63,247 bases of DNA, taken from positions 124,001 through 187,247 of the forward strand of contig JBEWZL010000137.1 in the NCBI GenBank assembly GCA_045837725.1. Direction: 5' to 3'. The translations under genes and the position numbers were made by a program. The notes under the pieces were generated by a model. That model saw only the letters and a program-made list of their open reading frames with translations. It made no database searches and was not told the DNA's origin. Positions 3,172 through 58,221 of the stretch are shown piece after piece. Each line of letters begins with the position of its first letter. Position 1 is the stretch's first letter. Source of the DNA: Vermamoeba vermiformis. Its lineage: Eukaryota.

Positions 3172-6100
3172 TTATTTCATGTTTTCTAATTGCAGCAACA
3201 CGGTCTCAATTGTCGGTCGTTGGTCTGGTTTTAGTGCCCAACAGAGTCGCATCAACGAAGCAAATTCACTTGGGCATAGGGGCGGTGGTGGGACTCGAGG
3301 AGTGAGTCCTTCGTCTCGAATCAGCGTGCCGATAAGAATAGCATCATTAGCTTCAAAATGAGGTTCTTGCTGCACGATGACTTCATACATCAGAATGCCG
3401 AATGTCCACACATCTGAACAGGCACGATTAGCATTGTTAAATGGATTTGACATGTAATAACATACCTGACTTGGTCGAATACTGTTTGTGTTTCAGTGAC
3501 TCAGGCGCCATCCACCGAATGGGTCCAAGGTCCGATTTGGTCGTGCCTCGTTGTTGTTGCTCGTCAACCAGTCGTGACATGCCAAAGTCGGTCAGTTTAG
3601 GCTCTCCGTGGTGAATGAGAACATTTCGCGCTGCAAGATCTCGGTGCACAATGTTGTTCGCGTGCAAATGAGCAATGCCACGACCGATGCCTTGCAGCCA
3701 TGCCGTCTTCTGCTCGAGCGGGATTGATTTATCCGCGTCATACAGCATGACATCCAGTGAGCCACCATTGCAAAATTCGAGAATCAGAATGACGTTGTTC
3801 GTTTCAGGGTGCACACTAAAGCCGAATAATTGCACGACATTGGGATGAGGTCGCAAGTTGATCATCAGTGACAGTTCTGAAATGACACTTTGCTCGGCTT
3901 GTGTCATGCTCACTTTCAGGGCGACATCCGTGTTCTTCCATTTGCCTTTGAACACTTGTCCATTTGCACCTTGACCAAGTTTTTCTGCGAATTGAATGTC
4001 CTTGAACGGAGTGAACCACTCGCCAAAGCGTTGCTCTAGTCCAACCGTAGTCGTCGATCTTCTTCTTTTGCGCTTCTTGAGGAATATCACAAGGAACACT
4101 ACGAGACCAGCAATAAGCAGTGCTGCAACAATAGGCACGACAATTGCGGCGATGAGTTCTCCGTCTGACAGGCCTGAAGGGGCCAGCGAGGCTTGGGGGG
4201 TGTCGCTTCCCAATGGCGGTGTTGGTGGGACGATGACAGGGGCTGCAAAGACCAGCACACGATCAGTGTAGAAGTTGTAGTTGAGGTGTTCACCGCCTGC
4301 TACCACAGTGGCGTGCCCTGCTTGAATCGATACGGCGGGTTTGAAGGGAAAGTCCAAGTCATAAGGTGCTAGTACACCTGTAGTAGTATTGTACACGCGC
4401 ACGGTCTGATTTCCATCAAATATCAGCATTGTATCGGTGCCAAAGCTGGCGATGTTGATGAAGTCAAAAGACGAGCCAAAGTAAAATATCTGCCACGTGT
4501 CCGTCGCTGGCTCGTAGTAGCTCAGCCCGTCATAACCACCATCGGAGTTAGCAAAGAAAGCTGCGTAAATCAAATCATTGTATTGCACTCTTTGTCGAAT
4601 GGCATGAGGCCCTCCATCAGTAACAAATGCCGCAGTGGTGCTGGGCTGATCCATGGTCGTGTAGTTCATGACAAGGTACCTGTCCAAGAGCGGGTACGGA
4701 ATGAATGCACGGTCGTCGAACACTGGCGTGGTCATGAATACTTGCAAGGGCACGTTAAACCTATTTCCGTACAGGTCTGTAGAATAAGTGACATTTTCCG
4801 TGAATATTGTCCAATTCTTCGTTGCAAGGTCGTAGTAACCACAGCCAGATTTGTACCAAACCAATATTTTGTCGTTCAGAGCTGCTGCCACGGCAAAGTT
4901 GTTGAGCGGCTCAGTGGTGAGCTCTTCGGGCAAATCAATCGAGTCCTCCCATTGGTTCGTGTTGTAGTTGTAGACGTCGATCTTCTTGTAGTGCTGGTAC
5001 TGCGGTATAGTAACGTCTTCCAAAGCTAGTACATCGGTCAACATCACTGCAAATACATCGCCACTTTGTGACGTGGCTTCACCCTGGGGTTGAAAACGGG
5101 CCGTCAAATTTACCACGTTTTGGATGTCTGACACTTTGGCAGATTTGCCTGAAAAAATGTCGACAAAGTCGTCGCCGACAATATACTGTGGTGCTATAGG
5201 CACTGCTAAACTGCTAGTGCCGATGAGTACCAAGTTGCTGTTGTACGTCTTCATGGTGCTTGCAGTAACTTGCGTGGATACGACGTTGGCGTCGAACATG
5301 ACAAACGTTGTGGCATTCAAGATGAAGATTGACGACACTCTGTTGAAGCCACTCAATGTAGTAATGTTCTTGTTGACTGCATCGAAGACGTAGATGTTAC
5401 CGCCGTCGCTGAAGATGTATTGCCGACTGTTCCACGGAGCAGAGAACATGGGGTAGTCGTAGAGTTGGACGCCGCGATTGGGATAAGTGTTCGTCACACC
5501 ACTCGATATGATGACGAGTGCTGGGGGTGATGCCTTGGTCACGTAAATGATGTCGCCTAGAAATGCAAAGCCAGCCCAGATGTTGTCGTTTGACACTTTG
5601 GTCTCGCCTGTCAACCAGTTGTAAGACTTGTATATAGTGCCGAACATATGCGTGACGTCGTTCACGGTCACTGGGGTCAATGGATACTGCACAGCTGTCT
5701 CTTCAACCCATCGGTCTTGCTTCAAGTGGTACATGAGCAGGAGTGGAATGGCCGTGTAGGTCACAACAACCACGTTCTCCGACACACTCACTGTGAATAC
5801 TGCAGGTCGATCTTTGGACGTTATGTTCGAGTATTCTGTCAATGTTCTCGACGTTGTGTTGAAGATCCAAGCCGTGCTGTATATGTCCTCGTGCGTTGTA
5901 GTGTTTTCACCGCCGATCACAAAGACCAGATCTTGGTAACTGAATGCATCAGATTGGTACAATTGTAACATGAATGACGTGAGCTCGGGGTAGAATGTCG
6001 ATTGGTTGTTTTGCAGATCGAAAAAGTCCACCGAGAAATCACCGACAACTGTCAATATTGAGTTGTGCATGGACATCGAGTTGGGATGGCTGCGGACAGT

Positions 6101-6469
6101 AGGGCCAGGAGGCAGAGGGACCAAGTCACGTTTAGCAGTTGAATAAATGTAAGGCGTGTTGACTAAGTCATAACCTCCAATACAGTAGATGCGCGGTTCA
6201 ATAACGACTGGGCTAACAAATCCTCGAGGACTAAGCAAATCAATCGTGCTGTTCCATGAATTAGTCGTGATATCAAATACATCAATTTTAGTTGAAGCTG
6301 CCGAGCTGTGGTACTCGAATCCACCGATTAAATATAGTTTGCTGTCCGCCTCAGCCGCTGAAACGGCTTTTCGTGGAGAAGATAAATGAAGTTCTTGCAG
6401 CGGGGGCATACTGGCGCCGTAAACGGCTTCAACAAGCAGCACGGCCACGATGAAATATTTTAATTCCAT
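3172..6469 (-). CDS. Single-pass receptor kinase: signal peptide, kelch/beta-propeller ectodomain, TM helix, tyrosine-kinase-type domain
   Basis: Signal peptide MELKYFIVAVLLVEAVYG; kelch GG motifs (LYLIGGF, IYCIGGY, VFVIGGE); TM LIAAIVVPIVAALLIAGLVVFLVIFL followed by KKRKRR. Kinase motifs GQGANG, VALK, HRDLAARN, DFG, PIRWMAPE. One intron at 3414-3465 joins KS to DVWTFG. Confidence 0.92.
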
Positions 6470-33242: not shown

Positions 33243-33724
33243 TTGCCGTTCGGACTAAACCAAAGAATTATGATTACAATTACTAGCCTTACATCGACTT
33301 TACTAAGCTTACCTTCGCTTCGTATGTTGCTGATGTTTCACCGAATTAATTAAATGCCTGGGAAGTTCTCCAACCACCCCGAAAACTAATCAATCAATCA
33401 GCACGTGTTGCAATTTAATAATTGTTAACGAGAATTAGTTAACGAGCTTTTCAACTAGTTCCCGATTAGTGTGCTCAAAGTATGAGGCGTAAAAATGAAC
33501 GACTATCGGTAATGTAACTTCACTTATTGAAAGGCCGTAGAATCACAGGAGTATCCCGAAAACAAAGCCAAAAATATCTTTTCTCGGCCCGAGCAACGAA
33601 TACAAAGTGTCATTGGGTACGTATTCCACTGTCATATGTCAAAGATTTTCCGCGTGCCCCGAACTCTCCGGTCCCTTTGTGTTTGCAACTATTACGCGAT
33701 CTTTCGTCATTAATCAGCACAACT

Positions 33725-35494
33725 ATGTTTGATATTGCTATCGTTGGTGCCGGGCTTGCAGGAGCTGCCACAGCTGTACTGCTTGCGAAGCGAGATCCCA
33801 ACTTGAGGATCGCTTTGTTGGAGAAGCGGAGCGAAGAAGATATCGTCAATGAGGTATGTATACTTGTTTTATAACGTTGGAACTAATATATGACTTTAGA
33901 AAAGTGGTCGTGCAATCAATCTATTGTTGTCCCCGCGCGGAGTCAAAACATTAGAAAGATGTGGCTTGTCTAAGGCAGAACTGACTCAATACTTCAATAG
34001 AATCGATGGACGCATCGTGCACGTGAATAACCAGCCGTAAGTCTTTTTTTTTCACCAACACGACCTGGATCCACATCCAGCCACGTATCGCAACGTCTAA
34101 TCTCGTCCTTATTTACACTAGTCCTATGAGTGTGCCTTATGGCCCGAATCGCTTTAACTTATCTATCGGACGAGGCCAATTAGTCAGCAAGTTATTAAGC
34201 ATCGCACGAGGGCTACGTATTGAGATCATGTTGGGCCAAGAGCTCGTTGGACTCGAGTCCGCATGCAACAACACAACGCGCTTGACACTCGTGAATCAAA
34301 CAGAGTAAGCGCGGCTTGATCCAAAATTGCACGAAAATCTAATACTTTAATAGTGCTAGTATTAAAAGTTTGGAGTGTTCACTTGTGATCGCTTCCGATG
34401 GAATTCATTCCATGGCGCGCGGATTCGTGCCTGTCACATCTAAGAAAAAGTTCACTCATTACGGCTACAAAGTAAGGAGCTTTGACTATAAATTGATTCA
34501 CAATTAACCTTTATTATGCAGGAGCTTACTATAATGCCTTCAGAAGGAGATTATGCAATGGATCCGCACGGCATCCACATCTTCCCTCGAGGGAAATTCT
34601 TTATGGTAGCATTGCCGAACACCGACAAGACTTTCAGATGCACAATGATCCTGCCCTTAGAAGGCGAGATTAGTTTTGCAAGCCTAAATAACGAGCAGAA
34701 GGTCAAGGAGTTCTTCCAGATCCACTTCAGCGAAATCACGCCGCACATGCCCAACGTTACCAAAGAGTTCATGAATAATCCTACCAGCACCTTGGGCATG
34801 ATTAAGTGCAACTCCTTCCACTACAAGGTATGAGACATAATATAATCATTTCGAGTGTTTACTGAAAGATTCTTGTTTTTCAGGATCGATTTGTCCTGAT
34901 CGGGGACGCCGCGCACGCGATTCTTCCATTCTTAGGCCAAGGCATGAATTTAGGCCTCGAAGACGCATTGATTATCGACGATATTTACACGAGGTAATAC
35001 TGAATCACATAAATTACAAGGTCGGATCTGACACGCGATTTCTCGTAGAACGATGTCGCTTCAAAGCATCGGTCCTGAATTCACCCGCTTACAAAAGAAG
35101 AATGCAGACGCCATTCAAGACATGTCCGAGCAGAATTTTATTGAGTTATCGGCTAATTTAGGCAGCAATCGCTTCTTGGTTCAAAAGAAAGTAGAAAATG
35201 TATTAGCGAGCTATTTCGTACGTAATCAATGCTAATGTCATCTATAATGGATGCTAATTACGTTCTTTAGCCTTCTTTGTTCATGCCGCCACCTTTTATT
35301 TCAGTTAACTTTTTGGATCTGACTTACGATCAGTACGAACTACTTTCTATTCTCGTTTTAATACGTAAAGCTAACATATTATATAATGTAGAGTGCGCCA
35401 AGGCCTTGAAAGGAATAAAGCCATCGCATCTGGAGTTACAAAGGCTGCTGTTTTGACCTCAATACTTGGTGTCGCATTAAAAGCCAAGCTATAA
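33725..35494 (+). CDS. Kynurenine-3-monooxygenase-like FAD-dependent monooxygenase with C-terminal PTS1 (AKL)
   Basis: GAGLAG dinucleotide motif, [74 protein letters not shown] and NFIEL. The last exon reads ...[11 protein letters not shown] (TAA 35492-35494). Confidence 0.9.
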
Positions 35495-35518
35495 TAAAGA
35501 CCTCGCTTGTTTTATTAA

Positions 35519-36467
35519 TTACAGCTTTGATTGCAGCTTAACCATATTGCACCAAGTCTCTTCGGGCTCGGAGATCTGTTTTAAAGCTCCTGTTTCCATT
35601 CCCGCAAAAGTGAGCATGAAATGGCAATCAGAGCCGAGAGCTACGAATGTAAATCCTTCATTAATGCGGTCTCGAGCGTTTTGATGATCGCGACAAATGA
35701 TTCCAAGGGGAATATTGCGCTTTTTACAAGCGGATTTCACTTTCTCGATCGCTTCTACGAATTTCTTTTCGTTGCTCCAGAATTTAGCCGGCAGACCCAA
35801 TGATAAATGCAAGTCGTTAGGTCCAATGAATATTACGTCAATGCCCTATTTAAAAGATTCTCTTAGATCTGTCTTATTGCAATTCTTCGGTATCTGACGT
35901 TACCTCGACACTGGCAATATCTTCAATATTATCTACTGCTTCTTGAGTCTCGATTTGAATAGCCACAAGAATGTGCTTATTGGCTTGCGCGATGTAACTC
36001 GGGCGATTGACGCCGAATCCAAGATGTGGATCAAGTCCTCCGGCTCCGCGTTCTCCAAGTGGAGGATAACGGCTGTACTTAACTACATCTTCCGCATCTT
36101 TCTTAGTATTGATCATGGGCACTAGAATGCCTTGCGCGCCACAATCTAGCGCTCTTTTAATGTGATGAACTGTTCCTGCAATTACTCGCTCGATCGGCGT
36201 GATCCTGCCTTGCGAAACTAAGAATATGATGTTAGGCAAATCTTAAGTATACAGGAGGTACATACTATCTGATATCGCGGATAAATTAATCGACGCTTGT
36301 TGAGTATCAATTGGATTGTGTTCCAGATCGAGCAACATCCAGTCAAAACAGCCTTGAGCAGCTAATAATCGCGTTGCATAATATGAACCGAGTTGTAGCC
36401 ACGTGCCAACAGCTACTTTGCCGTTTCTAAGCAATTCTAAAGTCGTGTTAGGTCTCAGTGTCTGCAT
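35519..36467 (-). CDS. HpcH/HpaI-family class II pyruvate aldolase (about 280 aa) with C-terminal PTS1 (SKL)
   Basis: Exons 36467-36266, 36217-35904 and 35845-35519. Motifs DWMLLDLEH, ERV, ALDCGAQGILVPMI, RYPPLGERG, QIET and FIGPNDL. Ends LQSKL*. Confidence 0.93.
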
Positions 36468-36713
36468 CTGACGTCGCGTTACTCTTCGTATTAATTCAGT
36501 GCCGGACAGCTGCCTAAACAATCAAAGATTTCGGGGTCTACCGCTTCCCGAAAAAAAAATACTATTTTTGACTCACGGGAAAACATCCCGAGAGACACAG
36601 CTGAAAGATTTGACAGGTTTGTTATTGACACGTGACAGTTTCTATGTATTTTCGGTCCGGTTCCGCTTATTTAATTGACGCGAGAGTATCTTACTGAATA
36701 CTACACGACGACT
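36468..36713. promoter_or_regulatory. Putative bidirectional promoter between the aldolase and dehydrogenase genes
   Basis: Head-to-head ATGs separated by 246 bp, containing the near-palindrome TGACACGTGACA at 36626-36637. Confidence 0.5.
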
Positions 36714-37799
36714 ATGGCGCATCTTATTAATATCACCAACATCACGGCCAATCATCCGGGCTACGCAGTTGTACTACGTTGGCAAGTTGAGGATGTGATC
36801 GGCTTTACAGCGGTGCACACCTTCAAGCCCAACAACGTGGCAGGCGGAGGCACGAGAATACTGCCGTACAACACTGAACAAGACGCGCTGAACGATGCCC
36901 TGGCCTTAGCCTTAACAATGACTAAGAAAATGAAAACAGCTGGTGTTGCAATAGGCGGGGCCAAGACCGTCGTCCGCGTGAAACAATTGGACGCGCAACA
37001 GAAACGACTAGGGCTGTGGGGTGTGTCCGAGATTGTGAAACACTTTGAGGGCCGATTATTGACTGGATCTGATCTCAACACTGGCAACGACGAGATCGAG
37101 CTGTTGTATTCATTCGTGAAGAACAGCGCGGATAAACTTCAACGGTGCATAGTCCGCGAGAGCGAGGCGAAGGTGAGTCAAGCCACTGCTTTTGGTGTCG
37201 TTGGTGCGCTTCAAGCCGTAATTCAGACGCTGCATCTGCCTCGTCGTCCCAAGATCACCATTCAAGGTGCGTCTTAATAATCGATAATAGGCTGTAGTAT
37301 ACTAACGAGTAGTGACAAAGGCTTTGGTAACGTTGGATCGCACGTGGCGCGAATTTTGAAAAATGTTGCCGAGGTGACCGTTACGGATGCGGATCCTGCG
37401 CGACTTGCTGAAGCACAAAAACGCTTTGGTTTCAATATTGTAGCTTCAGAAGATGCATACAGCCTCTACTCCGACATATTCGTACCATGTGCGGAGAGCA
37501 GAGTGTTCACCACGGCTCGCCTACATCGTCTCAACACGAAGGTGATCTGCGGATGCACGAACAATCCGTTTGATTCCGAAGAAAGTGGCTTACCTATCGT
37601 AGCTAGAAAGCGCATTGTATATGTACCAGATTATATTGTTAACTCTGGTGGAGCTCTGCGCGTTGAATCGCATTATTACGCGATCAAGAGGACAGATGAA
37701 GACATTCAGCAGATTATTGGCAGTCAAGTAGCTAAATATTTACAACAATTAGATAATATGAGTTTGATTGTTCCTAATGCCGTCTCGGCCAAATTATAA
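36714..37799 (+). CDS. Glu/Leu/Phe/Val dehydrogenase, bacterial Leu/Phe/Trp-DH type (about 343 aa), C-terminal PTS1 (AKL)
   Basis: GGGTR, MTKK, GGAKTV (catalytic Lys), GSDLNT, SQATAFGV, FVPCA, CTNN and VPDYIVNSGG. Splicing intron 37267-37320 restores the Rossmann motif IQGFGNVG. Ends VSAKL*. Confidence 0.92.
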
Positions 37800-38329: not shown

Positions 38330-40437
38330 TTATTTCCACAAACTCTTCGCGTACCACGCACTCGATTCAAATTCAGCGCGCAGACCTTTGTTGCAGCGCA
38401 TGTACTCGTCGTACAGGCCACCAGTGATCTTTGATAAGAACGATTTGTACGAGGGCCTGGCACGTGCAATGACATTAATATAAGCAATGCAATGTATATT
38501 AATATTTACCGTATGTTGCGTGGCTCCCAAATACCTGCGTAAAAAACAAGTGCCGTAAAGAACGAGTACAATAATTCCGTTCCATATTTAGGCGCTTTGA
38601 TCTTATTCAACGCTGCAAGGTGGTTATATACAGTTTGTATTGCCTAATAAGGAAATTAGTATTTAGCAAAAACTTTGCAGTCTAGGATCTGACTTACTTT
38701 AGCAAATATATACATAGAGATTTCAAGCGATGAGCTCAAATATGACGATAGGCCCGCTATAAAGCCTGCTATTATTGTATTATACGCGTCGTCTCTTCGG
38801 CGCATAATTCTGAGAATTAACGGTCAGTTCAATGAACGCTTTCAAAAGTCAAAAATTTCGTTACCTTAATCTACATTTGATGAACCGCGAGAGTGCTGAT
38901 AGGCAGCCTAAGAATAAGCCAAATCGAATCTACGTTATGAAAGTATTAGATCGCGTGTTTGAGAGTACTTTAAGTCGAACGGATGTACCTGTTGAGATCC
39001 AAAACTTTTCAGTAGTATTTGTTTGAGTTTATCTCCGCTTAATCCTCGTACTCGTACCAAACTAGAAACTAAGGCCAATAATCCCTAGTAACGTGATCAT
39101 TAGAATCGAGATTTCATCAACGCGCCAAATTTCAAAATTTAATTCGGATCTTAAGCAAGCGTAATGATCTTTAGGATTGATTAATATAATTAATGTATTA
39201 ATAGTACATACTTTTAATCCATATCCAAATAAGAAAGACTGGCTGAAGTTAGCGAACCAATGCACTTCGCATCTGGTGCCGTGTAATTGGTGCGGACACG
39301 TCATTTCCTCTAAATATTAACAATAACCGTGTTGTTATTACGAGTACTAGTAATATTATAGTATTACTATGAGTTACCTGACGATGAGTCTTCGGAGTCA
39401 AAGCTAGTGGAAGAGAGTTTTCGTTCTAAGAGCTGTGGCTTGCCTTCTTGGCCGTTTAAAAATTTGACAATATTTCCAACATTGCTTAAATATTGCGGCG
39501 CGTGTTTTTGATAATAACTGAGCACCGCCCATGAAGCCGCGAATAAAATGCCCATGCTGTGTTTGATTGGCTTGATGCAGCCTAGAATAATGAACAATAT
39601 TAATCCATGTGAGTATGCGCGCATCTCAAATATTATGATCAAACGTTCGACATTAGATCCGGCATTGTAAAAACTATCGTCCAATGAAATTTCGTAATAA
39701 TGAGACACTAACCTCTCGACACCATCATCCTAAATATGGTCTCGAGTCCTACATTAAGGACATATACAGCAAGTTCTTTTCGTCGTCCTTGGTGCTCGAC
39801 AAAAATCGAGATCAACGCCGCTACAAAGAAACTTCCAAAAAAGTAAATTCGATAGGCGCGGTGCGTCAGGCCAAGTAATAGGCAATGAAAAGTGACGAAT
39901 AGACCGCCATATATTGCTATAATATAATCGATGTTAGTTATTATAACCGAGATATTTAACATTTAGTAAATGTGAATCACAAAAAAACAATTTGGAAAAA
40001 TTGAATTTACGGCTTAGCTGAGAATATGTATAAGAACTCGAAAATGCAAAAGAATAATTTAAGTATTTAACTGACGCGCCGCTTCAAAAAATTACGGATT
40101 TGAAAAATCGTCCGTTAGGCGCGGAATTTGAGAATAAATACTAAATCAAGCTTAAATAAACGTAAATTGATGGCAAAATACCAAATATATAATTGTCATG
40201 CTTACACAAGAAGGAGCTACTTCTTACAACGGCGGGAACGACTTTAGTGAGAATGGATTTGACTCCTCTGCGTCCAACTATGTGCGTAATGAGGTACAGC
40301 GGTCCATAGAGCTTAATGGCTGCTATGAAAGGATATAAGAACGCCTTTCCGGTGAACCGATAGTGGGATTTGGTTTCAGCGTGCAGCACTTCCGAGCAGG
40401 GCTTGTAAAACCAATAAAGCTCCTTCGAGTGCGACAT
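38330..40437 (-). CDS. TMEM135: TMEM135/PMP52-like (Tim17-related) peroxisomal membrane protein
   Basis: PCSEVLH, KLYGPLYL, VRSSSFL, VEHQGRRKELAVYV, FGLFLG and NTIIAGFIAGLS. C-terminal EPRNIRPSYKSFLSKITGG resembles the TMEM135 LRPSY.KFL motif. Confidence 0.8.
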
Positions 40438-40632
40438 GGTGTCACAATAAACAATAAATTATAAAAATTCGATGCATCGCGATGTCGGTTAGTCGCCAAA
40501 TTTAGCGAGACTTTTGTCACAAAAAAAAAAAGAGACAAAGCGAAAGGAACACTTTGAGATAATCAATAATAAGATTGGTATGTACGAGTAATTACAAGTA
40601 TACAGCAACAATGATCATGATGACTGGTGCTA

Positions 40633-53832: not shown

Positions 53833-55520
53833 CTAATAGTACAATTTTGCATATGGAACTGACGTAAAGTCGCCGTATTGCGAGTAATAGCCGTTCCAAG
53901 CCTGTTCAATTCCCAAACTGGTCCACCAATTACCAAAGTACGAGAACACTTCTACGCCATTAGTGACTGCCATATTGCTCGTAGAAAATAAATAGGGCTC
54001 TTTTTGATATACGTAGGTCATATCGCTTAAATTCCAGGTGAAAGTCTTGGTGAATGCGAACATGCCATTCAGATCGATAACTTTGACAGCAGAATCCTAA
54101 TACAAAAAAAGGTCAATATTAACTAGTTTAATTAATATTAGTGCATTATTTATATATATTCATGTTTCTATCCGACTTACCAAATATGGTGAGGATAAAA
54201 TTGGCCGTGTCAAGTCTCGCGTGTCAAAAATGTCAATTTTGTCGCTGGCAACGATCAACTTGTGACCACTCACATTGAACTTGACAGTATTATGGAGTTT
54301 CGAATCAAACGTGCAGTTGGCTACGTAATGTTGCTCAACTCTCGGATCCAGAATGTCAATCGTTGTCTTGGTCTCTTCATAACATAGTCCGTCTCGTAAT
54401 GTGCACGATTTGAATTCATTATTGGGACTGTACGAGTTTGATAGCTTGTAGCCAGAAACGATGTCGAAAAATCCATCTTCAAGTTGGAAAAAAAGTATAA
54501 GAGACAATAAATTTCTTAATTTGGAAAAAATGAAGAATTTTTCGTTTTGTTACCTTGGCACGCAATACGACTTTCATCGACGGCAAATGCTAGCATTTGG
54601 TAATTTTTTGCTGGAAGGCGAAAAGAAGAAGGTAGCTTGTCTGATCCGGCCTGAAAATAGAGCATTGATAAATGAGTAATGTTACAGAAAAAATATATAT
54701 ATATTCAGTGGATAAATTATCCTTACTAATGGTATTAACTGGCACTCTTGATCACTTCGTAAATAAATCAAGTCGTTGAATATTCTAGCGTTCACATAGC
54801 CATTACTATGGGCTATAGTCTTTGCCTGAGTCTCGCGGTTGATTACACTATAGCCTCTATCATAGGTGTATATAAAGTACTGCTTATAGGCTTCGCAAGA
54901 CGAAATTTTTTGAGCTATAGATTGCACATGACCGCTATTAAATTTTCGTTTTCTATCATCAATGATTAATTTAGTATTCGTATACCTTTTTATAGCTAAT
55001 ATACTTACTGCAGCTGTTTACGGAAAGATTTTCCGCTTAGATCCGGATTGGTAACGAATGGCATTTCGTTTTCGTATTTTAGTCGCCAAATAGCTGCCTT
55101 GTTTCTGGTATACATTCTATTCATATTCTTGTTTAGAATAGCAAACATTTCGGCAATGCGTGCGTTGTATGACTAATTATAATGGCTATCAACTCGTCCG
55201 GCAAATTTTCAATCGAGAAAATTGGAATTACTTGCGACAGCCCTTTAAACCGTTATAATATCGTCTTTCAATTATACGAATTATTCTTACTGTTCCATTT
55301 GTTCCTAAATGGTGCCCAGAGTGAGTCTGAGATAACAATTAATTCTGAGAAAAATTAAACTATTTTTGTACTGCTTACGATCGGCGTATTCAAGTAGAAA
55401 TGAAGCCAATTCCTCCGATAATGGATATGACAGTATATTCTCTTGCTCTATTAATTGGTAGAAGCAACTTGGAGCTAAGTTGGGTAATTCACGCAACGCG
55501 ATCCGAGGAAACTTCACCAT
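53833..55520 (-). CDS. Divergent F-box-like protein with beta-rich C-terminus; 5' exon structure uncertain
   Basis: LSEELASFLLEY..AEMFAILNK..AIWRLKY, followed by exons matching ORFs 54682-54927, 54160-54507 and 53833-54063. Confidence 0.5.
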
Positions 55521-55629
55521 CAATGGCAACAATAGCTGTCTTACAACGTTTCGAATGCACATCTGGTTCGCGGATGGCAATTTAAGCAATTTAGAGCAAC
55601 ATTGAAGCACTACTTGAGCTTAGATCAGT

Positions 55630-57137
55630 GCGGTAAGTGGCCGGCCCCGGGAGAGGAGACGGTGTGTGCGGACGGCGGTCGGTGCGGGGGGGAGGGTGGG
55701 TGCGGGCGTCGGGGTGTTGAGGTGCAGGGTGCGGGCGTCGGTGATGGAGGGTGGGAGTGGGGCTAGATGGAGGGGGGGCGGAGGGAGAGCTGGAAGGGTG
55801 GGTTACTGAGCAGCAGAGACGGAGGGACTAGAACTGAAAAGTATGGTTCGCGGTAGGCTCCCAGCTGTATGCTCAACTTGAGAAGGACAGTGAGAACGAG
55901 AAGGATCATAAGATAATTGTCGAATGAGGGAGTCGTGACTGGAACGTGAATGATCGAAGGAGTTTAAAGAAGGATAAAGAGAATGAAAGGGGACGGCAGA
56001 AGAAGGGATAAAGTGATGGTGGAGGTGTTAAGAGTATGGAGAATAATATAGATAATTTGGTCATCCAATTCGCGCTATTGCATTCGAATGGCACGATAGA
56101 GTGAAGGGTTGAAGATTGATAGTTGCGCGAGCGAATGAAGGATTAGGATTAGTTCGGTAAGATTATGGGCTTATGATTAGGTAGAGTGTAAAAGGGATTA
56201 ATACAGCACCACTGCAAAAAAGGAAAGTTATTCTAGCAGATATTGGATTAGGATATTTACTAGTATACAGGAGAGAAATCCATGCATTTATTTTGAAAGG
56301 TCCGGGAGGGTGGAATCAAGCATTTTGTTATTTAAGGATAAATTCACGTGTGGACGTGAGCAGGAATGTAGAGGGAGATGAGGAAGTTTTATAGATTAAG
56401 GTTGGACGCAGAAGAAGGTTGGAATTGGTTATCAGTCCTGAGACGAATTATAGACGGTTAAAATGAGAGGGATGGTGAAGGATGGGGTGGCAGAGAGAAG
56501 AGTTGATTCTCGTACCGGAAGAAGGTTGCGGCGGAGCGAGTGGGAGCTAGAGAGAGAAGATGGAGATTGAGGATGTGCGTGGGACGGCGAGGATCGAGAA
56601 GGAGTGGAGGATAGAGTAGGTGCCGTGCAATATAATATGGAATAATAATATTATGTATTGGCCAACGCGGAAAAGAGGGATGTTTAAGGGGAGAAGAGTA
56701 GATGGGAGAATTATGGGTGATTGGGAAAACCTAACGAGATGTTGAAAAGTGTTGACGGAAGGATAATGGTTCCTAGCATGGGAAAGCAGAGAAGTGACCG
56801 GCAACCCGAGTAGGAGAGGGGAGAGAGAAAATAGGAGGAAAGGGGATGTCGTTGGAGGGTTGGGACTGAATTATTGATGAAGGGAGAGAGGCTGAGTCGG
56901 GGAATGGGGATTTGTGATGAAAGAATGATAGAAAGAGTTGGGGGAAGGAGGGAAGTTTAGGGAGTTAATTAGGGAGAGGAGGGAGGGATGAGGGAGGGGG
57001 GGGGGGAGGGGGGGTGGGAGAAGGAGAGGGACGGGTTTGGAGGTGTTTAAGGTGGCAGAGGGAGTGATTAAGGTAGGGATGAGGAGCGGGGGGAGGGGAG
57101 CGGAGGGGGGAGGGTGGAGGGGAGGAGGAGGAGGGGT
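55630..57137. other. Purine-rich, G-skewed low-complexity island
   Basis: Abrupt shift to G/A-rich, C-poor + strand sequence, with G-tracts at about 55640-55800 and 56930-57137. No credible ORF. Confidence 0.85.
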
Positions 57138-57156
57138 TTAGTAACTATATATTTAT

Positions 57157-58221
57157 TTATTTACAAGTACGGAACGTATTAACAGTCTCGCTCAATCGGC
57201 GATCCAACAAACACCAAATGAAGCCCGGCAGACCACTCAAGATAATAGGCAGTCTTCTATCCCTAAGATTGTCCATAAATGTCGGGTCGTATTTACTGTG
57301 CAAAAAGACCACCATCAGTATTTGTACGGCATTATTAATTAATTTGAAATTCGTCGAAAAATGTTACTTACTAATTCTGCTTGCTAATGACTGCTGAATA
57401 GCACGCTGCGAATTCCCTATTAAGGCAAGGCACGTGCTCTTGTTTATATTGATTGTAACCGAAGCAGAAAGTCTCAATCACGTACTTCGCTGCTTCGTCA
57501 AATGCCGTTACATCCGCTTCAGTAATCACATTGGACGTCGCGAATATTTTGAATGCCTTGACTGTGAATAGTGTATTGTATTTAGCGAGCCAACGCTTGG
57601 ATTTCAGACTATCTTCCATAACCGCATTTTTAAGTGGATGCAGATCTGCATTATGTTGTTTGAATAGCTTAAGCATGGCAATAGACGATTTGTGCTTATA
57701 CAATCCATTAATATGAAGAATAGGAGGTTCGTTGCCGGAATTAACAGCCGATATCAATGACGAGCCACAACACTTCAATACGTCCCTAATGTGAGGTTAC
57801 TACAAAGCAATAATTACTGATAATAATATTACTATAATAGGCTTTCATATATGACATACGAGGCAAGCGCTGTATCGTTAACAGAGCAGACATAGTGAAG
57901 AATATTGTTGCCCGTATTTGGTTCTCGCCAATCACGCAATCGCTCCGCTACAACAGGGCTGTACAAGCATATTTCAACGAATCTTCTGTCGTCTTTAGCG
58001 AACCACTGCAGTGCAAAGCAATCAATAGCCCGGTCTACAGCTAAAAAATATTTTTTAATTAAAATAATAATTTATTAATTTATTAGACGATTCGCTAGCT
58101 CCTTACCACTGTCTATAATGTTCTCGATACTCAGTGTTGGATATAAAAATCCTGATAAATACTTATCAACCCATTTTGATCTGATTGGATCATCTTCGCT
58201 CACGAATGCATTCGTACTCAT
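57157..58221 (-). CDS. Hypothetical protein with ankyrin-like motifs
   Basis: Four spliced exons including TGNNILHYVC, GNEPPILH and LFKQHNAD. Stop at 57157-57159. Confidence 0.6.

Follow-up and report, generated by a model that had tools for sequence, protein, structure and literature searches.

The present report deals with a stretch of 63,247 nucleotides (the window) from contig JBEWZL010000137.1 of Vermamoeba vermiformis, and more particularly with three adjacent genes located between its positions 33725 and 37799. These genes, designated g1, g2 and g3, encode a FAD monooxygenase of the kynurenine 3-monooxygenase (KMO) family, a class II aldolase of the HpcH/HpaI type and an amino-acid dehydrogenase of the ELFV superfamily belonging to the Leu/Phe/Trp type, respectively. 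The predicted proteins all end in a tripeptide of the peroxisomal targeting signal type 1 (PTS1), namely AKL, SKL and AKL, according to the pattern [SAC][KRH][LM]. The three enzyme families, which also occur side by side in bacteria, probably form one still undescribed pathway.

Gene models were built from the sequence of the window, a eukaryotic region with short introns (46-85 nt) bounded by GT..AG. On the forward strand, g1 (33725-35494) comprises 9 exons (33725-33853, 33900-34036, 34122-34304, 34354 or 34360-34471, 34522-34827, 34884-34993, 35049-35217, 35271-35332 and 35392-35494) and encodes a protein of 438 amino acids with the C-terminus GVALKAKL, the AKL codons at 35483-35491 preceding the stop codon at 35492-35494. 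The reverse strand carries g2 (36467-35519), made of 3 exons (36467-36266, 36217-35904 and 35845-35519) and encoding 280 amino acids with the C-terminus VKLQSKL, the SKL codons occupying positions 35522-35530 and the stop codon positions 35519-35521. The third gene, g3 (36714-37799), again on the forward strand, consists of 2 exons (36714-37266 and 37321-37799) and encodes 343 amino acids ending in NAVSAKL, with the AKL codons at 37788-37796. The stop codons of g1 and g2 face each other tail to tail at a distance of 24 bp (35492-35494 and 35519-35521), and the ATG codons of g2 and g3 (36467 and 36714) are arranged head to head, separated by 246 bp. An earlier sequence-only reading of the same DNA had proposed this trio of adjacent genes, with its families, its three C-termini and both spacings, and all of these were confirmed.

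The database searches were run with single exons, so that the scores reported here are per exon. In Pfam, exons 1 and 6 of g1 matched FAD_binding_3, NAD_binding_8 and DAO, including a Rossmann fold; exons 2 and 3 of g2 matched positions 65-217 of the HpcH_HpaI model (PF03328); and the two exons of g3 matched ELFV_dehydrog_N (PF02812) and ELFV_dehydrog (PF00208), respectively. Searches of the ESM Atlas yielded the same family assignments again and nothing further. Among the proteins of known structure, the best matches were human and rat KMO for exon 5 of g1 (6.5e-20), YfaU, GarL and HpaI for exon 2 of g2 (1e-17 to 1e-14) and a tryptophan dehydrogenase (PDB code 5b37) for exon 2 of g3 (4e-19), the Trp, Leu and Phe dehydrogenases being the best matches of the g3 exons taken together. 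The translation of g1 exhibits the N-terminal GxGxxG and the GD...GQG motifs of the group A flavoprotein fold, the blocks LDLEH, ERV, IQIET and GPNDL of g2 sit, by inspection, at invariant columns of the alignment, and g3 carries both ELFV domains together with IGGAK, containing the lysine of GGxK, and the NAD site GFGNVG. The four blocks of g2, as well as GGAK and GFGNVG of g3, are taken here to be catalytic or cofactor-binding motifs.

Transcript support comes from spliced contigs of two public sequencing runs (X1 and X2), which are 95-99% identical to the window and devoid of introns, and are therefore regarded as transcripts of related strains. Each of the two runs covers all three genes as spliced transcripts and, among the matches listed, at least 9 of the 11 introns of the trio are seen as spliced, including 7 of the 8 introns of g1. 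A check of the C-termini against transcripts, as proposed by the sequence-only reading, came out favourably for the final intron of g1 (35333-35391), which sets the KAKL end and is seen spliced in X1, and for both introns of g2, spliced in X1 and X2; the sole intron of g3, like the g1 intron 34305-34353, was not found among the matches listed for these contigs. The g3 intron is required because its removal restores the GFGNVG dinucleotide-binding motif, and P0029, a 92% identical relative of g3, displays the same exon 2 and the same C-terminus SAKL. Raw RNA-seq data from two runs bearing the same species label (X10 and X12) contained only 2 and 1 reads, respectively, at 95% identity or more, and are uninformative on expression.

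With respect to the C-terminal tripeptides, 3 of the 1208 stop-to-stop open reading frames (ORFs) of at least 30 amino acids present in the window end in [SA]KL, and these are g1, g2 and g3. Extending the pattern to [SAC][KRH][LM] raises the number to 5 of 1208, by adding two short ORFs of 38 and 42 amino acids. The aldolase relatives nearest to g2 have comparable termini, since P0001 (76-81% identical) ends in PKL and P0002 (69% identical) in SRL, whereas no PTS1-like end was found in the 18 other aldolase homologues read out of 20 fetched. PKL may also work as a PTS1; as a validated signal, it was looked for in PMC3487989 and not found there. P0001 and P0002 reside on transcript-sized contigs of about 900-980 nt and are presumably eukaryotic. 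All three products of the trio are predicted from these termini to function in or on peroxisomes. On the reverse strand at 39367-40458, downstream of g3 by about 1.6 kb, lies a homologue of TMEM135, two exon-sized ORFs of which match the Pfam family TMEM135_C_rich (1.4e-08 and 3.8e-07). Mammalian TMEM135 (PMP52) is given in database listings and abstracts as a protein of the peroxisomal and mitochondrial membranes. Its location beside the trio may be a coincidence.

The 246 bp between g2 and g3 (36468-36713) represent a putative bidirectional promoter, and the word CCCGAAA occurs in it on both strands (36529-36535 on the reverse strand and 36547-36553 on the forward strand). The same word occurs twice on the forward strand of the region upstream of g1 (33255-33724), at 33378-33384 and 33555-33561. 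Only 7 sites exist on both strands of the entire window, and 4 of them are accounted for by these two regions; in a control, 3 of 4864 random pairs of regions of equal size contained an equally rare word twice in each member. CCCGAAA is thus suggestive as a sign of co-regulation, with the reservation that the motif was found post hoc. The palindrome CACGTG, also present in both promoter regions, was dropped as an element specific to the trio because it is common window-wide. It occurs 36 times in the window for about 12 expected, a number reached in none of 100 shuffles, and is possibly a common regulatory site of this region of the genome.

As judged from its sequence, g2 is clearly orthologous to bacterial aldolases. 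Orthologues sharing 56-66% identity with g2 were found in Endozoicomonas, Streptomyces, Amycolatopsis, Minicystis and others, and the tree assembles g2, P0001 and P0002 into one clade (95 in the SH-like approximate likelihood-ratio test, SH-aLRT) nested among bacterial sequences. At least this enzyme of the trio looks like a protein of bacterial origin, which would have gained its introns and its C-terminal PTS1 in the eukaryote lineage; the fungal-style cluster of the sequence-only reading is in this respect not purely fungal in style. Gene clusters of bacterial ancestry are known from eukaryotes. A metagenome scan with exon 3 of g2 retrieved 80 loci, the best of which is 51% identical, and no close eukaryotic relative was found among them. 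The g2 aldolases form a distinct clade, recognizable by a conserved ETWCN motif at the C-terminus. The NCBIfam equivalog cut-off for HpaI is 368.8 bits, and the P0002 aldolase and those of an Endozoicomonas (L002) and a Streptomyces (L013) locus reach only 157-178 bits; with the GarL and RhmA models these proteins stay lower still, far below the respective equivalog cut-offs. The exon 2 of g2 alone reaches 85 bits with the HpaI model, g2 having been scored only as single exons.

The aldolase served as the center for a search of bacterial loci, 79 from genomes and 80 from metagenomes (159 in total), with all three proteins of the trio. Nine of these 159 loci have, next to the aldolase, a KMO-family FAD monooxygenase (FMO) that is 29-34% identical to g1, and all nine fall within the 14 best-ranked genome loci. 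They differ in gene order, three Endozoicomonas loci having the aldolase followed by the FMO, one Amycolatopsis locus having the FMO followed by the aldolase, and five Streptomyces loci (L005, L007, L012, L013 and L014) displaying an FMO, an ELFV dehydrogenase, the HpcH aldolase and a tryptophan halogenase. Co-localisation in bacterial genomes, which the sequence-only reading had put forward as a check, was therefore observed for all three families, contiguous in the five Streptomyces loci. The proposal of a single route receives strong support, independent of the window, from this linkage of the same families, in 9 of 159 loci for the monooxygenase and in the five Streptomyces loci for the ELFV enzyme. 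In one of the Endozoicomonas loci (L002, 8325-14777), the aldolase-FMO pair stands alone, with a WD40-repeat protein on one side and a radical-SAM/Memo/AMMECR1 trio on the other.

The Streptomyces loci deserve a closer description. In a representative cluster (L013, 2998-17993) the genes encode, successively, a FAD monooxygenase, an EryCIII-like glycosyltransferase, a methyltransferase, a DegT aminotransferase, the KMO-like FMO, the ELFV dehydrogenase, the HpcH aldolase, the tryptophan 5/6-halogenase, a second DegT aminotransferase, a second glycosyltransferase and a FAD_binding_4 oxidase. The halogenase is of the type acting on free tryptophan at positions 5/6 (825 bits to PDB code 8fov). With two glycosyltransferases, two sugar aminotransferases and a methyltransferase flanking the operon, the cluster is, by its predicted content, of the glycoside type. 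According to PMC6509518 and PMC11552416, the akashins consist of an indigo that is chlorinated at position 5 and N-glycosylated with an amino sugar, and PMC9946207 describes a candidate akashin cluster recognised by its halogenase and methylamino-sugar sub-clusters, the indigo core being tentatively assigned to cytochromes P450. The predicted content of the Streptomyces locus agrees with a product derived from indole by chlorination and amino-glycosylation, akashin being an example, and resembles that of the candidate cluster in PMC9946207.

A scan of 18 neighbouring ORFs in 7 loci revealed other oxygenases beside the aldolase. In three Myxococcota loci (L004, L010 and L011), the aldolase is immediately preceded by a luciferase-like monooxygenase, an acyl-CoA-dehydrogenase-like protein lies downstream of it in Rhodopila (L008), and P450s are present in loci L006 and L011. 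In Amycolatopsis, a DAO-type oxidase is located about 4.5 kb upstream of the FMO, together with a molybdenum aldehyde oxidase, also a few kb upstream. These neighbourhoods suggest a general pairing of an oxygenase with the aldolases of this clade and, since a single clade of aldolases is combined with oxygenases that are not homologous to each other, the simplest explanation would be that the oxygenase makes the 4-hydroxyl required by the aldolase.

With respect to substrate recognition, g1 was compared to KMO by mapping the numbering of PfKMO onto g1 by counting in the alignment. In PfKMO, the carboxylate of L-kynurenine is held by Arg84, Tyr98, Asn369 and Tyr404, according to PMC6376250. Counterparts of Arg84, Tyr98 and Asn369 are present in g1 and in 9 of 9 aldolase-linked FMOs, whereas at the position of Tyr404 g1 has Phe and the nine FMOs have Ile, Pro or another residue; Tyr stands there in the five database KMOs aligned and also in the rat and Pseudomonas KMOs. 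Accordingly, g1 possesses three of the four residues and does not display the complete carboxylate-binding set of KMO. Two further features are common to g1 and the aldolase-linked FMOs, an Arg in the sequence F-R-C, occupied by Thr in the five database KMOs and in the human, rat and Pseudomonas enzymes, and an Asn in V-N-F, preceded by a one-residue insertion. By its residues, g1 is a KMO-family enzyme, the substrate of which is predicted still to exhibit a carboxylate at the KMO position, and it departs from one defining feature of KMO just as the aldolase-linked enzymes do. The best NCBIfam match of the bacterial FMOs, to VioC, was given little weight as an identity for them, no KMO model being among the 25 matches shown, so that VioC may be no more than the closest model on offer.

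The dehydrogenase g3 has its best NCBIfam match in Trp_DH_ScyB (NF035922), its two exons scoring 80 and 57.5 bits where 600 is the cut-off, and by this standard is not a member of that family. It is 31-33% identical to dehydrogenases of the Leu/Phe/Trp type, compared to 22-24% for the ELFV enzyme of the Streptomyces operon, and is thus not orthologous to the latter. An independent recruitment of the deaminating partner would follow from this, and points to function more than to common descent. The DAO-type oxidase of Amycolatopsis also fits an independent recruitment of this partner.

From these data, a module can be proposed in which the three enzymes are co-regulated and balanced with respect to their cofactors, and in which an aromatic amino acid is deaminated, hydroxylated and split by retro-aldol cleavage with release of pyruvate; this is the interpretation we favour, with a confidence that comes close to an even chance without attaining it. 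The NAD-type dehydrogenase g3 would deaminate the aromatic amino acid to the 2-oxo acid with formation of NADH, tryptophan or an amino acid derived from it such as kynurenine being the most likely substrate. The flavoprotein g1 would hydroxylate the ring at the expense of NAD(P)H and O2, and g2 would split the 4-hydroxy-2-oxo acid so formed, yielding pyruvate and an aromatic carbonyl compound. The link to tryptophan is drawn because of the halogenase of the Streptomyces operon, of the tryptophan dehydrogenase as best match of g3 and of the membership of g1 in the KMO family. Reduced nicotinamide would be made by g3 and consumed by g1, so that the module would suit a compartment closed to NAD(H). 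The catabolic logic of the sequence-only reading (hydroxylation, deamination and retro-aldol cleavage) is likewise preferred here. Import into the organelle, the order of the steps, the substrate and the direction of the pathway are what we infer from sequence, and the adjacency of the three genes would reflect such a module rather than a chance neighbourhood.

In one version of this scheme, chemical reasoning would place the hydroxylation at the ring carbon bearing the side chain, i.e., C3 of the indole ring of indole-3-pyruvate, which would create the tertiary 4-hydroxyl required for the retro-aldol step and lead to the release of an indoxyl-type product. The trio would then correspond to a tryptophanase-independent cut of the tryptophan side chain, which in Streptomyces would give the (chloro)indoxyl units of akashin-type indigo glycosides and which the protist would have acquired or re-assembled, provided with PTS1s and installed in its peroxisomes as a cofactor-balanced route. 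Such an origin of the indoxyl would explain the akashin-like context of the Streptomyces operon; as a complete scenario, it is nevertheless held to be quite doubtful.

Several observations weigh against the proposed module. The maximum-likelihood tree places g1 as sister to 6 bacterial KMOs (support 95/96) on a branch of length 1.32, the Endozoicomonas FMOs branching next and the actinobacterial FMOs further out; the grouping of g1 with the Endozoicomonas FMOs is not rejected in the approximately unbiased test (p = 0.06). Since g1 was compared in this tree with bacterial KMOs and FMOs only, it may simply be the ordinary KMO of the organism. The last 23 residues of g1 consist of a hydrophobic stretch of 19 residues followed by KAKL; the mean Kyte-Doolittle hydropathy of this stretch, calculated by hand, is about 1.7, and only the N-terminal FAD fold is listed as more hydrophobic. 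KMO is bound to the outer mitochondrial membrane, as stated in PMC8199213. Because animal KMO is such a membrane protein and the C-terminus of g1 is hydrophobic, the tail of g1 may be a membrane anchor, in mitochondria or peroxisomes, with KAKL as its basic end, in place of a PTS1 for import into the matrix. Apart from P0029, no relative of g3 exceeding 40% identity was found among 1.84 billion representatives, no longer protein matched g3 exon 1 at E <= 0.001 among 1460 candidates, and a metagenome scan with exon 2 gave 229 pattern matches and no relative. The bacterial operons are devoid of a g3 orthologue, a KMO-like neighbour is missing from most of the closest aldolase-clade loci (22 of 31), and the ipso-hydroxylation step is derived from chemical reasoning.

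Among the alternatives, the one that best withstands the data runs in the biosynthetic direction: the aldolase would join pyruvate to an aromatic aldehyde, the dehydrogenase would convert the product, a 4-aryl-4-hydroxy-2-oxo acid, by reductive amination into a gamma-hydroxy amino acid whose skeleton resembles that of kynurenine, and g1 would decorate the ring. The hydroxypyridylhomothreonine of nikkomycin is reportedly made by the same logic of aldol addition and amination. An aryl-C4-C3-C2(N)-C1 skeleton, as possessed by the substrate of KMO-family enzymes, is exactly what these two reactions would build, the carboxylate-binding residues of KMO are largely kept in g1, and the Streptomyces counterpart sits in a biosynthetic-looking cluster (two glycosyltransferases, two sugar aminotransferases, a methyltransferase and a halogenase). 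Catabolism is nevertheless a better fit to an NAD-linked dehydrogenase of the g3 type and to a peroxisomal location. No aldehyde-forming enzyme is seen beside the trio in the window, the molybdenum aldehyde oxidase near the Amycolatopsis pair would fit the removal of an aldehyde product, and the pairing of several unrelated oxygenases with the aldolase is most simply understood if the oxygenase makes the 4-hydroxyl. Synthesis in this direction is accordingly regarded as unlikely.

A neighbourhood due to chance, or to a loose common theme of the organelle, appears rather improbable. Under this assumption, g1 would be an ordinary tail-anchored KMO of NAD synthesis, and g2 and g3 would be unrelated peroxisomal enzymes with no intermediate in common. 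The tree position of g1 among KMOs, together with the 45-51% identity of its exon 5 to bacterial KMOs, would agree with this view, and the nearby TMEM135 homologue could point to a loose grouping of peroxisome genes. Moreover, PMC9513677 counts the yeast KMO, Bna4, among the proteins newly assigned to peroxisomes, so that a peroxisome-associated KMO has a precedent. Such a neighbourhood leaves unexplained, however, why orthologues from the aldolase clade should stand beside KMO-family enzymes in three genera and in three gene orders, why an ELFV dehydrogenase should join them in Streptomyces, why g1 and the aldolase-linked FMOs should both lack Tyr404 and carry the same Arg and Asn replacements, and why a rare promoter word should be common to both regions of the trio.

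A branch of the kynurenine pathway, in which g1 would make 3-hydroxykynurenine, g3 would yield the 2,4-dioxo acid from kynurenine or its 3-hydroxy derivative and g2 would cleave the hydrate of that acid into (3-hydroxy)anthranilate and pyruvate as a pyridoxal phosphate-independent bypass of kynureninase, is very unlikely. In its favour, g1 belongs to the KMO family with three of the four kynurenine carboxylate ligands, and a pyruvate enolate is a leaving group that class II pyruvate aldolases stabilise. Against it, the dioxo acid closes spontaneously into kynurenate or xanthurenate, g1 is devoid of the equivalent of Tyr404, and neither a tryptophan dioxygenase nor a formamidase was seen in the subset of ORFs that was scanned, be it of the window or of the Streptomyces operon.

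The degradative module built on deamination, hydroxylation and retro-aldol cleavage thus remains the preferred interpretation. No description of the trio, of a peroxisomal HpcH aldolase or of a retro-aldol route from indole-3-pyruvate was found in the literature searched, which largely did not cover subscription journals and supplements, and neither the bacterial operon counterpart nor the pairing of this aldolase with oxygenases was met with there. The earlier opinion that no described pathway contains these three enzymes stands to that extent, but the trio does exist as an apparently uncharacterised bacterial operon. If confirmed, the module would represent a new logic, combining an oxygenase with an aldolase and widespread in bacteria, for breaking or building the side chains of aromatic amino acids. 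It would also suggest, in a form open to experiment, how akashin-type natural products acquire their still unexplained indigo core, and would clearly illustrate the rebuilding of a bacterial pathway in a eukaryote through the gain of introns and of the same organelle tag on each enzyme. Owing to the availability of three small soluble enzymes and of a bacterial operon, the question is directly testable in vitro.

Elsewhere in the window, a single ORF of 1010 amino acids on the reverse strand (3437-6469) combines N-terminal Kelch repeats with a C-terminal protein kinase domain. The region 54001-58000 displays a strong GC skew, from 0.17 to 0.40 in 2-kb windows, unlike the remainder of the sequence.

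Compared to known enzymes, g1 exhibits the same fold and belongs to the same family as the KMOs of known structure (human, rat, Pseudomonas fluorescens and yeast), and differs from them by the Phe replacing Tyr404, the Arg of F-R-C, the Asn of V-N-F, its long branch and its AKL end. Its hydrophobic C-terminal segment presumably occupies the position of the membrane anchor of animal KMO. The class II pyruvate aldolases HpaI, YfaU (RhmA) and GarL have the Pfam domain HpcH_HpaI and the catalytic blocks in common with g2, whereas the relatives of g2 remain far below the equivalog cut-offs and constitute a separate clade. The closest family of g3 comprises the tryptophan dehydrogenase ScyB/NpTrpDH and the Leu and Phe dehydrogenases, yet the identity of g3 to these and other relatives is no higher than about 31-39%, and beyond its species group it has none that is close.

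With respect to gene organization, the nearest known system is the Streptomyces operon, in which the same three families are contiguous, with about 60% identity between its aldolase and g2 and 29-34% between its FMO and g1. In contrast to the trio, its genes are co-directional, belong to a glycoside-type cluster and encode proteins devoid of a PTS1, and its ELFV enzyme resembles glutamate dehydrogenases. Among eukaryotes, the AK-toxin genes of Alternaria and those of the late steps of penicillin formation are said to be fungal clusters whose enzymes carry a PTS1. Like the trio, they consist of clustered genes with a common peroxisomal targeting signal; the trio differs from them by its enzymes and its chemistry, by its limitation to three genes, by its occurrence in an apparently non-fungal protist and by the existence of a bacterial operon as its counterpart.

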